A stretch of 64,000 nucleotides of DNA from Candidatus Lloydbacteria bacterium RIFCSPHIGHO2_02_FULL_50_18 (GTDB taxonomy: Bacteria > Patescibacteriota > Minisyncoccia > Phycocordibacterales > UBA6899), in contig MHLM01000014.1 of NCBI GenBank assembly GCA_001821395.1, positions 1-64,000 of the forward strand, read 5' to 3'. Numbering within the stretch: position 1 is the stretch's first letter; each line of letters begins with the position of its first letter. Position numbers: made by a program. Shown here piece after piece: positions 1 to 3,000 of this stretch.

Positions 1-3000
1 AACCGCCTGGGTAGTACAATCGCAAGATTAAAACTCAAAGGAATAGACGGGGACTTGCACAAGCGGTGGATTATGTGGTTTAATTCGATGGTACACGAAG
101 AACCTTACCAGGGCTAGATATCTAATGGAAAGACTTAGGAAACTAAGTAACTCCGCAAGGACCGTTAGACAGGTGATGCATGGCCGTCGTCAGTTCGTGG
201 TTTGAACTGTTCCCTTAAGTGGGGTAACGAACGCAACCCTTGTCGTCTGTTACAAGTGTCAGGCGAGACTGCCCAGCCCTAAGCGCACAATACGATCATA
301 AAAGATGATCGTGATTGCGAATTTGGGGCTGGGAGGAAGGCGGGGATGACGCCAGGTCAGCATGTCCCTAGATGCCCTGGGCTACACACATAATACAATG
401 GAGGTTACAACGGGCAGCGACCCAGCAATGGTGAGCTAATCCTTAAAAAGCCTTCTCAGTCCGGATTGAGGTCTGCAACTCGACCTCATGAAGCCGGAAT
501 CGCTAGTAATCGCGGGTCAGCTAAACCGCGGTGAATACGTTCTCAAGTCTTGTACTCACCGCCCGTCAACTCAAGGGAGCCGGGAGTACCCGAAATCTCA
601 CCTCGTGTGGGCCTAAGGTAAGCTCGGTAACAGGGAGTAAGTCGTAACAAGGCACGGGTAGCGGAAGCTGCTCGTGGATCAATTCCAATTTGGAGCGTTG
701 ATACACTTTCGAGTGTAAAGACTGATAGTCGATGAGTTCCTAGAACTATGGTCATGGTGATACACCCTAAAGGTCACTGCTTAACATGCGAGCGATGCAT
801 GTCGGATAAGGCCTCTCAATACGTAAAGAGGTAAAGTGGAGCGAGACAAAAGAAAGTGCTGTATTTTCTCAATCTTGTTTCTTTCTGAATTTGCATAGCT
901 TGATCGCGTAACACACTATAATCTCAAACAAAAAACCTACTCACCCGAGTAGGTTTTTTGTTGCCATTTTTTAAGTCGGAGGGTATGATAAAAAAATGGA
1001 TGAACAAATGCCAGAGATCAACAAGAAATTACTCGAGATGGATGAAGGTGAACTGCCTCCTGACGGAGAGTTGGGATCCGAGGAATTTGGTGCCTCAGGT
1101 GACGAAGTTGCCGGAGAAGACCTCATGAGCAGTCTCGGTGAGGCTGCCATGGATGAAGCACCGGACGTGCACGAAGCCCCGTCAACGCTTCAGTAGACGA
1201 AGAGTAAAAGACGAAACCCCGCTCAATAGAAAAGCGGGGTCTTGTTTTTGATCATTGTAGGAAAGAAGAAGCCCCGTATGTTTTGCATGCGGGGCTTTTT
1301 GGGGTGATCATCTAGTCTTTGATCGGAGGATCCTTCGCGCGCAGTGCGACGATCATGCTTCGCGTGATCGATTGGCAGCGGAGACAGCGCTCGTCAGTCT
1401 CTGAGTGCTCATTCTCGGCTTTCCAGTAGAGCACATTCTCCTCACTTGTTTGCATGTGCAAGAAGTCACGTTGTTCCTGGGAAAGATCGTTAGGTGACAT
1501 ACCGTTCGCTATTTGCCCCCTGAGGTTTTCAAGTTTTTTGATCCGCCAGTCCGTTTGCAGCGATGCCACGGGAGCGTACTTAGCAGTTTTCGTTTTTGCC
1601 ACGATGAGCCTCACTTCCTTTGTGTAAGTTAAGAAGGGCAAAAGTGCCGTATCTGTGTCTATTATACAAAGCTTGCGCTACCTGTCAATATGTGATATAA
1701 TTTAAGAGTAAGTTTGTTCTATGAATTTTTAATAAGGAGAAGGATAATGGTGAGAAATCGGATATTAAGCAAGCGTGGCTTGTTGTTCACGCTCGCATTT
1801 GTAGTGTTGGGAACGATCTCCCTCGCCATGCTTGATGGGCTCGTGCGTGACCTTGCGGGTGAGCCGCAAATATGGGAAACCCACGTACGTTACACCTGGC
1901 TAGCCAAGGCCGGTTATCGGCAATGCATTGTTGCTGTTCGCGGCAAAACTGCCGAGCCGTGCAGCTCTTTCACGAAGGAGCAGATCGCAACCTTCAGGCT
2001 TCAGTATGAAACTCCGTCGCCGAAGGTCCTTGCCGGGGAGTTTTGAATCAGGAGCGAAATATAAGCCGGGCACACGGTGCTCGGCTTTTTATTCTCTATT
2101 TCCGTTGGCATTGCGATAAACGCTTGTTTTTGCTATATTCTCCCATACAAGCGCGTGTATCAAAGCATACATACGGTTCGTTCGGTTCAAATATAAACAT
2201 ACTTTTAAATCCATTTCTGTTCTGTGTGCGCGTGTAGCTCAGGTGGTTAGAGCGCGTCACTGATAATGACGAGGTCCCAAGTTCGAGTCTTGGCATGCGC
2301 ACACAGAACAGAAGAAAAGCATGTTTATATTTGCCCCTCACTGCCGTTAGTATCAAAGCATATATACGGTTCGTTCGGTCAGAGAATAAATGAGTGCATT
2401 TCTTCTCTTCCCTCACTGCCCTTTGTAGCTCAGGTGCAAAGGTGCCCCTACGGGCTTTTTTTGTTGGAGCGGGCAAAAGATGCGGGCACTCCTTTTGCCC
2501 TAATAATAACGAGATCCCAAGTTCGAGCGACTAATTTTTCTTGACGGTACTCCGTCTTAGAAAAATGAAGTGCTCTTGTGGCGCTTGGCATGCGCACACA
2601 GATGAACAAAAAGCCCCAATTGCTTGGGGTATTTTTGTCTGTCACGTGAAAGATCAGATATGGTATTATCGTAATATGATCAACGAAGCAATTGCAAATT
2701 ATGTGCGTGACGAGCGCGCTCGGGGTGTTGCTGACCAAGCTATTCGTGCCGAGCTATCGGTAAAGGGCTGGAAGTCAGAAGACATCAATGCCGCTCTGCC
2801 GAAAGGAGATGAGTCGACGACGATAGCAACGAAGTCGAAGATATTCGGGTCTGCACTTTTGGGAACAGTAGAAACTGCAGCATTTCGTCTGCTCCTTCTC
2901 GGTTTCGTATTTTTTCTCGTTTCGTCCGTATTGCTCGCTTTGTTTTACGGTGAGGCAAAAAATGATCTCAGCAATCAGCTTGTCTTCGCCCTATTTTCGC

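Follow-up and report, generated by a model that had tools for sequence, protein, structure and literature searches.

Within a 64,000-nucleotide (nt) stretch of the genome of Candidatus Lloydbacteria bacterium RIFCSPHIGHO2_02_FULL_50_18 (contig MHLM01000014.1, positions 1 to 64,000, forward strand), which we call the window, we analyzed the locus of an isoleucine transfer RNA, tRNA-Ile(GAU). The gene sits inside a long helix formed by its own leader and trailer, and this helix-flanked cassette lies among the scattered pieces of a second, broken copy of the same tRNA. We lean towards reading positions 2111–2638 as one compound tRNA-Ile(GAU) unit, of a type common to a subset of Parcubacteria. 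Our confidence in the structural and evolutionary description of this unit is high.

The tRNA locus occupies the gap between an open reading frame (ORF) of 99 amino acids (1747–2046) and a membrane-protein gene (2676–3419), downstream of the 3' 689 nt of a bacterial 16S ribosomal RNA (rRNA) gene (1–689). Rfam and ARAGORN found one tRNA gene in the whole window, which is also the only intact tRNA within the unit. It lies at 2228–2301 on the plus strand, scores 69 bits against Rfam RF00005 (gathering score 29) and forms a cloverleaf with a defined anticodon, as a canonical bacterial tRNA does; ARAGORN calls it tRNA-Ile(gat) at 2228–2302. CCA is not encoded, the 3' flank being ACAC. Upstream, a promoter scan placed a promoter-like site at 2111–2139 on the plus strand (TTGCGA, a 17-nt spacer and a TG-extended TATATT), and the motif GCATTGCGATAAAC...TTTTTGCTATATT also precedes the tRNA-Ile unit in the related loci L001 and L174–L176 and in many others. 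A bidirectional terminator-like hairpin, found by a terminator scan and left without a strand, closes the unit at 2606–2638. We ruled out an assembly artefact because independent assemblies give an identical sequence for the locus. Very close relatives are 99.9–100% identical here, and their microdiversity therefore offers no test of constraint.

A covarying helix around the tRNA

The sequence-only reading of this DNA had described the tRNA, an inverted repeat around it and a series of repeated blocks, and we found each of these in its place. The 17-nt core of the inverted repeat is perfect. Its arms, 2215–2234 and 2294–2313, extend over 20 nt and are 95% complementary when a G.U pair of the acceptor stem is counted, and a second pair of arms that had gone unnoticed follows outside them (2188–2206 and 2315–2333; 19 nt, 95%). 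The helix is thus longer than described, with 7 acceptor pairs, 14 perfect pairs and then the 19-nt outer arms, roughly 40 base pairs (bp) in all. On the evidence of inverted repeats, folding and covariation, its 5' arm spans 2188–2227 and its 3' arm 2302–2333, both on the plus strand. The duplex directly continues the acceptor stem, with U(-1)-A73 and G(-2)-C74 paired, and exceeds the length of about two helical turns around a stable RNA that characterizes stems of the ribonuclease III (RNase III) type. The stable fold expected by the sequence-only reading was borne out: the segment 2185–2340 folds into one interrupted rod of -65.7 kcal/mol (z = -8.8), and 0 of 200 shuffled sequences were as stable.

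When the whole unit is folded, the rod runs on through two blocks that form the base of the cassette, the L block ATCAAAGCATACATACGGTTCGTTCGGT on the 5' side (2159–2186, plus strand; conserved in L001, L007 and L174–L176) and the R block CCCTCACTGCCGT on the 3' side (2335–2347, plus strand; also in L001 and L007). There, a conserved internal loop is spanned by pairing between ACGG in the L block and CCGT in the R block, and the distant locus L007 has this basal loop too. The trailer segment 2306–2321 can alternatively pair with 2395–2410.

We further investigated the conservation of the helix in relatives. Scanning genomes, one for each species, with the 3' part of tRNA-Ile yielded 43 loci, every one of them in the candidate phyla radiation. 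Roughly half have a leader–trailer duplex of -25 to -56 kcal/mol that directly continues the acceptor stem, and the rest are without one. Ten other tRNA calls in the same loci (Ala, Leu, Val and one false ARAGORN call) had flank duplexes of only -5.6 to -18 kcal/mol. Covariation was measured over 21 pairs in a gap-free alignment of 22 helix-type loci from species-level genomes. Paired cells made up 94.6% of this alignment, compared with 75% after shuffling and 20–60% when the partners were slid against each other. Changes on both sides were seen at 12 of the 21 pairs, covering 96 cells and falling entirely within the 14-pair extension beyond the acceptor stem, and the variable positions mostly show three to five pair types. 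Some positions behave differently: pairs -1/73 (U-A) and -2/74 (G-C) are invariant in all 22 loci, half of the sequences leave the ninth pair open, and the tenth is mostly U.G.

The kind of mismatch tolerated tells which molecule is under selection. Over the 12 variable helix pairs we counted 38 G.U against 7 A.C, an excess that rules out a DNA-level palindrome, and the helix is therefore selected as RNA on the tRNA-sense strand. The alignments thus show that the helix has been kept by compensatory evolution on this strand in at least 22 species, the RNA-level signature that marks an RNase III-type stem. At closer range, relatives whose flanking proteins are 70–73% identical keep the promoter, tRNA positions 1–9 of the broken copy and the L block almost invariant while their helix arms diverge. 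In the relatives found through the upstream 99-amino-acid ORF the contigs stop inside the locus, and for these the promoter and leader side were compared.

The sequence-only reading had likened the stem to the processing sites of rRNA operons. The conservation of the helix fits that comparison, in which cleavage is the predicted part. As in the RNase III stems of bacterial rrn 16S and 23S genes, a long leader–trailer duplex surrounds a stable RNA, with covariation rather than sequence being kept, and the tRNA-Ile locus follows a 16S gene. Unlike those stems, the duplex here holds a tRNA of 74 nt, with whose acceptor stem it is coaxial from pair -1/73 onwards; the tRNA-Ile has its own promoter and stands outside a linked 16S–23S operon, and its cleavage is conjectural.

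A split copy around the functional gene

Direct repeats relate the sequence downstream of the cassette to the functional gene and its leader. The leader 2159–2186 recurs at 2352–2379 (27/28 identical), TGTAGCTCAGGTG at 2233 recurs at 2424 (13/13), the segment 2260–2287 at 2500–2527 (25/28), and CTTGGCATGCGCACACAGA at 2289 recurs at 2584 (19/19). These block identities of 89–100% compare with 0.00–0.01 matches expected by chance. The block CCCTCACTGCC is likewise doubled, at 2335 and 2410. Direct and inverted repeats and alignment identify 2352–2422 (plus strand) as a partial tandem copy of the cassette base that lacks a tRNA and consists of L' (2352–2379), a degenerate 5' arm (2380–2409) and R' (2410–2422).

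The other repeats belong to a relic tRNA, whose exons lie on the plus strand at 2151–2159, 2424–2436, 2463–2470, 2500–2527 and 2584–2597. The first, which the sequence-only reading had missed, can be read directly at 2151–2159, upstream of both the leader block and the functional gene; it comprises tRNA positions 1–9 (GCGCGTGTA), that is, the 5' acceptor strand with U8 and A9. It is invariant in L001 and L174–L176, and L007 has a longer 5' half in its place. The relic resumes beyond the cassette with positions of about 6–19 (TGTAGCTCAGGTG, 2424–2436; 13/13 identity to the functional gene), and its D-loop is then interrupted by insert E (2437–2462, plus strand), CAAAGGTGCCCCTACGGGC followed by seven T. 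The 3' half of the D arm (GTTGGAGC, 2463–2470), which MAFFT aligns with GTTAGAGC of the functional gene, is followed by insert C (2471–2500, plus strand), a 9-bp hairpin GGGCAAAAG / CTTTTGCCC with the loop ATGCGGGCACTC that stands in for tRNA positions of about 26–32, including the 5' strand of the anticodon stem. Next come the exon from the anticodon loop to the T-loop (CTAATAATAACGAGATCCCAAGTTCGAG, 2500–2527; 25/28 identity to 2260–2287), insert D in the relic T-loop (CGACTAATTTTTC...GAAAAATGAAGTGCTCTTGTGGCG, 2528–2583, plus strand) and a last block of 3' T stem, 3' acceptor strand, discriminator and 6 nt of trailer (2584–2602; 19/19 identity). Two insertions had been reported in this copy: the one in the T-loop is insert D, and the first turned out to be two, E and C, parted by the 3' half of the D arm. 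The anticodon loop reads CTAATAA, compared with CTGATAA in the functional gene, which confirms the reported mutation and changes the anticodon from GAT to AAT. The relic has no way of forming an anticodon stem and does not amount to a decodable tRNA.

The order along the window is therefore exon 1–9, then the cassette (L, 5' arm, tRNA, 3' arm, R), then L', degenerate arm and R', and finally the other exons split by E, C and D. With its 5' acceptor strand upstream of the functional gene, the relic surrounds the functional cassette. The sequence-only reading had proposed a tandem duplication of the whole tRNA unit; this holds for the leader block and fails for the unit as a whole, where the arrangement is nested.

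The same arrangement appears in relatives. A BLAST survey with tRNA-Ile against all loci showed the gene flanked on either side by tRNA-Ile fragments of the same strand in nearly all helix-type loci, whereas about 17 of 21 loci without the helix had no fragments. The fragments are complementary, in that the upstream 5' piece stops where the downstream 3' piece resumes, which places the intact tRNA and its helix within an older copy. Relatives found through the downstream protein (52–65% identity) also bear extra tRNA-Ile pieces beside the true gene. The cassette interrupts the outer tRNA at four or more different positions: after position 9 in the window and L001, in the D-loop in L003, L008, L021, L039, L048, L060 and L070, in the anticodon loop in L007, L017 and L042, and in the variable loop in L015, L032, L045 and L117. 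Nesting can be deeper. In L060 there are three levels, with an intact tRNA at 5478–5551 and a second and a third copy each split at the D-loop, and at least the two inner levels have complementary arms of their own; L033 and L140 show two to three levels. These nested relics show a gene that has repeatedly been rebuilt inside itself. Each relic would be what remains of a previous gene copy, displaced by a helix-flanked copy placed inside it, most simply because the repeated tRNA segments recombined or underwent gene conversion with one another.

The inserts of the relic are also shared. Other loci, among them L003, L060, L025, L033, L036 and L039, have counterparts of inserts E, C and D in the tRNA positions that these occupy in the window. 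Insert E has a homologue at 2317–2341 of L003, in the same position of the D-loop, and insert D has homologues at the same T-loop position in five loci (L025, L033, L036, L039 and L060), with some changes on both sides of its A/U-rich stem. For hairpin C we collected 13 distinct instances from relatives. Within an instance 95.7% of positions were paired, compared with 69.6% when strands of different instances were combined; the pair types vary at positions 3–9, the stems differ at most positions, and the loop keeps the consensus ATGCGRGCACTC. The two relic levels of L060 carry different versions of the hairpin, each paired with itself. Compensatory changes have thus preserved the pairing of hairpin C. 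All Rfam hits in the window and the relatives were to tRNA and 16S; for the inserts, no Rfam family matched in window positions 600–2720 (gathering score and E up to 10) or in 15 + 5 relatives (gathering score and E up to 0.5). The conserved hairpins of the relics define small RNA elements absent from databases.

Taken together, these results bear on the view that a tandem duplication of the whole unit, private to this genome, has been decaying neutrally, with the hairpins and T-runs as incidental insertions. This would account for the tandemly doubled leader and CCCTCACTGCC blocks, for the mutated anticodon and the lost anticodon stem, for the absence of any ARAGORN or Rfam call on the second copy and, if the event were recent, for the exon identity. 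We nevertheless judge it improbable. The upstream position of the relic 5' acceptor strand (2151–2159) makes the arrangement nested, inserts E, C and D occupy the same tRNA positions in other genomes, hairpin C changes in sequence and keeps its pairing over 13 instances, and the blocks are either 100% identical or wholly replaced, unlike the outcome of uniform decay. Of the decayed pseudo-tRNA that the sequence-only reading had seen here, what survives is a copy with no decodable tRNA; its private decay does not, given the shared inserts and the pairing of hairpin C. Pseudogenes made by tandem duplication and random loss, for instance in mitochondria, are similar in having a duplicated unit of which one copy lacks cloverleaf integrity. 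They differ in that the interruptions here are shared across genomes and structurally constrained, and in that the relic encloses the functional copy.

A further insert was seen in the relic copies of relatives. Insert A is a structured element of ~90–200 nt at tRNA position 8/9 or 47/48, which begins with GAG and a stem, continues with GCAAGACCTTTTGAG...CCAAAAGGTGTAC and then GCTCCTGTAAGGAG, and has no Rfam match. It is present in L117 (~5217–5315), on the reverse strand of L048 (~1080–1170), and in L001, L008, L015, L025, L033, L039 and L070. In L117 it directly follows a 5' gene fragment of 14 codons. The intact copy of this gene begins just downstream, and from reading its sequence we take it to encode a pterin-4a-carbinolamine-dehydratase-like protein.

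The interrupted copy might itself be functional, either as a multi-intron or split tRNA served by a novel bacterial pathway, or as a tRNA-like non-coding RNA with hairpin C as an anticodon-like arm. The relic has kept its acceptor strands, D stem and T stem perfectly, with inserts at positions where archaeal tRNAs have introns (D-loop, 59/60). Conservation extends to hairpin C and the consensus of its loop, and group I introns are common in the tRNAs of Patescibacteria (PMC13011429). We regard this as very improbable nonetheless. The joined exons lack positions 27–31 and T60 and are rejected by ARAGORN at default settings, the D-loop and T-loop inserts would break the tRNA elbow, insert A junctions in relatives delete one to two tRNA nucleotides, most relics have an AAT anticodon, and in Rfam the inserts matched neither group I or group II introns nor any family of ribozymes. 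ARAGORN run on the sequence itself, with -i, -i0,300 and lowered thresholds, found only 2228–2302, in agreement with the earlier preference for a pseudogene over a valid intron-containing tRNA. Joining the exons in silico gave no gene at default and only a meaningless 'tRNA-???' at -ps80. We identified no bulge-helix-bulge motif at the relic junctions, though no search aimed at this motif was made; bacteria are not known to have a splicing endonuclease.

Several known systems resemble the interrupted copy in part. The split, permuted and multi-intron tRNAs of archaea (Nanoarchaeum, and the non-canonical introns of Thermoproteales) also have breaks at the D-, variable and T-loops and long flanking helices, whereas we describe a bacterium, a cloverleaf that cannot be joined for want of positions 27–31, and an intact copy inside the broken one. 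In Patescibacteria, self-splicing group I introns of 200 nt or more have been reported to interrupt the anticodon loop in tRNAs such as tRNA-Asn and tRNA-Asp (PMC13011429), a paper in which tRNA-Ile(GAU), flanking helices and nesting are not mentioned. The phylum is the same and interrupted tRNA genes are missed by annotation tools in both cases, unlike those introns, however, the interruptions here are inserts of 26–56 nt or a whole helix–tRNA cassette, and match no intron model. The intervening sequences of bacterial rRNA, which RNase III excises and which are left unreligated, are likewise small stem-loops at defined positions that vary between lineages and keep their pairing. The inserts described here differ in that they reside in a tRNA copy that is already non-functional, and in that their excision is hypothetical.

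Origin of the nesting and maturation of the tRNA

The nesting could also be the work of a selfish cassette that copies itself into the resident tRNA-Ile by homing-like gene conversion or transposition. Each event would break the old copy and supply a working one, the exons would be homology arms, and inserts A, C, D and E would be mobile structured elements in the dead copies. Several observations are in line with this: the three nested levels of L060 and two to three of L033 and L140, each level with its own helix; the four or more positions of the cassette in the outer tRNA; the occurrence of insert A at two tRNA positions and beside the duplicated protein-gene fragment of L117; the TGTA at both cassette junctions in the window (2156–2159 and 2424–2427); and the fast turnover of locus organisation among genomes ~99% identical in 16S segments. 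Against these, no nuclease, transposase, integrase or reverse transcriptase was found encoded in or beside the unit, the D-loop junctions of relatives show no consistent target-site duplication, and the G.U excess indicates arms selected as RNA and not as terminal repeats of DNA. Inner and outer copies moreover share lineage-specific acceptor and T-stem variants, which intragenomic recombination fits equally well. We consider the selfish cassette rather unlikely, and note that nesting by ordinary recombination and by a self-homing element both fit the data.

Remnants of attachment sites, left by integrative elements that use tRNA-Ile, are another conceivable source of the fragments. The anticodon loop or the T-loop is where several of the relic 3' fragments start, and these loops are reportedly the classical crossover positions for tRNA-targeting integrases. 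We find this explanation extremely improbable: fragments of the 5' side occur as often as those of the 3' side and complement them around the cassette, all lie within tens of nucleotides of the gene, and Pfam matched no integrase or transposase family among the seven neighbouring ORFs, the 99-amino-acid ORF and the membrane-protein gene included. It would also leave the covarying helix and hairpin C unexplained.

Returning to the compound unit, the helix matters for how the tRNA is made. The 5' ends of bacterial tRNAs are thought to be made by RNase P on single-stranded leaders, and here an essential tRNA has a fully paired leader. According to two studies (PMC9433436, PMC7897497), bacterial RNase P works poorly on a leader paired with the 3' end and extending the acceptor stem. 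That the leader–trailer pairing is kept in many species suggests that tRNA maturation in a large uncultivated group of bacteria includes an additional, double-strand-specific step. We have moderate confidence that the helix is a processing stem for a double-strand-specific, RNase III-type enzyme, at which cleavage is predicted to occur. The promoter at 2111–2139 would drive one structured precursor of about 490 nt, and a double-strand-specific endonuclease, for which RNase III is the known bacterial candidate, would open the duplex. The cut may fall near the conserved irregularity 9–10 bp from the acceptor end. The pre-tRNA released in this way would have short flanks able to melt, and RNase P, 3' trimming and CCA addition would finish the tRNA.

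The relic may persist through all this as a co-transcribed, cis-acting RNA architecture rather than as freely drifting junk. Its hairpins would organize the precursor, and may block mispairing between relic and tRNA, close the structure or end transcription; our confidence in such a precursor-organizing role is low.

Several points weigh against this reading of the unit. No ERLEFLGD-like RNase III motif was found in the 64-kilobase window, and both RNase III cleavage and co-transcription of the relic are steps that we infer. The short hairpin and seven T of insert E could stop transcription before inserts C and D and the 3' exons of the relic; such termination would call for another explanation of their conservation. 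The counts of G.U and A.C in hairpin C are uninformative. Several genomes sharing inserts E and D are ~99% identical to the window in their 16S segments, so that the conservation of E and D is not deep, and conservation between distant lineages (16S identity of about 82–86%) applies to the helix and hairpin C only. Finally, the identity of the relic exons could stem from gene conversion or recent duplication instead of selection: in the window it includes 6 nt of trailer, and in L017, L077 and L140 the relic and the gene have lineage-specific acceptor and T-stem variants in common.

A bolder proposal goes further than the compound unit itself. Parcubacteria may repeatedly re-create a helix-excised tRNA-Ile inside its predecessor, up to three levels deep, by means of a self-homing cassette or dedicated recombination, with the split predecessors being kept as functional parts of the precursor. 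We put this forward tentatively, as a possibility that we do not expect to be the likelier outcome. If true, small structured insertions (A, C, D and E) would make up a new class of elements, joined here to a double-strand-nuclease route of bacterial tRNA maturation. There are precedents for processing stems, for tRNA pseudogenes and for interrupted tRNA genes; a bacterial tRNA held in a conserved leader–trailer duplex and nested in split, constrained copies of itself was not found in the literature or in Rfam.

Surroundings of the locus and further observations

Protein genes and the tRNA-Ile, which has its own promoter, come after the 16S gene in the window, and Rfam found no 23S or 5S gene within the 64 kilobases. 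An unlinked layout of this kind, with tRNA-Ile 0.9–3 kilobases downstream of 16S, also occurs in L001, L009, L017, L023, L033, L039, L043, L045 and L047. The protein encoded at 2676–3419 matches, at 100% identity, a hypothetical protein from Candidatus Lloydbacteria bacterium RIFCSPHIGHO2_01_FULL, which places the organism among the Parcubacteria of the candidate phyla radiation.

The tRNA-Ile loci break metagenomic assemblies (L172–L176) and yield false tRNA calls. The contigs or scaffolds of L172 and L173 start at the equivalents of window positions 2225 and 2503, those of L174–L176 end within the leader or the tRNA, and L021 and L042 carry runs of N; the repeated tRNA segments are the likely reason why metagenomic contigs so often break here. 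A 'tRNA-Gly(ccc)' that ARAGORN called over the relic of L077 proved to be mismatched and false.

Searches for partners and further copies of the relic elements gave little. Window sequences complementary to the L block or to the hairpin C loop did not rise above chance. The 16S segment GGAGUACCCGAAA (583–595) is complementary to the hairpin C loop AUGCGGGCACUCC with three mismatches over the 13-nt pattern, a quality of match seen 19 times in the window where 15.8 were expected, that is, at chance level. A metagenome scan with the hairpin C pattern, which was too loose, returned 120 stretches of which 6 were real, most of the others being GC-rich coding noise.

The 16S gene has peculiarities of its own. 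In the Rfam alignment its 3' end reads GGAUCAAUUCCAAU at 675–689, compared with the bacterial consensus GGAUCACCUCCUU, and the anti-Shine-Dalgarno sequence CCUCC is therefore altered; motifs resembling GGAG or AAGGAG are still present upstream of ORFs, for example at 975–981 and 1731–1740. At ~262–330 the gene carries a hairpin insertion of ~30 nt or more relative to its relatives (the BLAST alignment breaks at 288–317), and the 16S genes of L060 and L045 have a different insertion of ~890 nt at the equivalent of window position 559/560. Such insertions are typical for the rRNA of candidate-phyla-radiation bacteria.

Lastly, some relatives carry an Orn/DAP/Arg decarboxylase gene that, like its leader, is not in the window. 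The gene is preceded by a conserved promoter and then a 5' leader of ~120 nt (L001 ~3590–3730, L002 ~225–350 and L003 ~2440–2570), which is a candidate cis-regulatory RNA.

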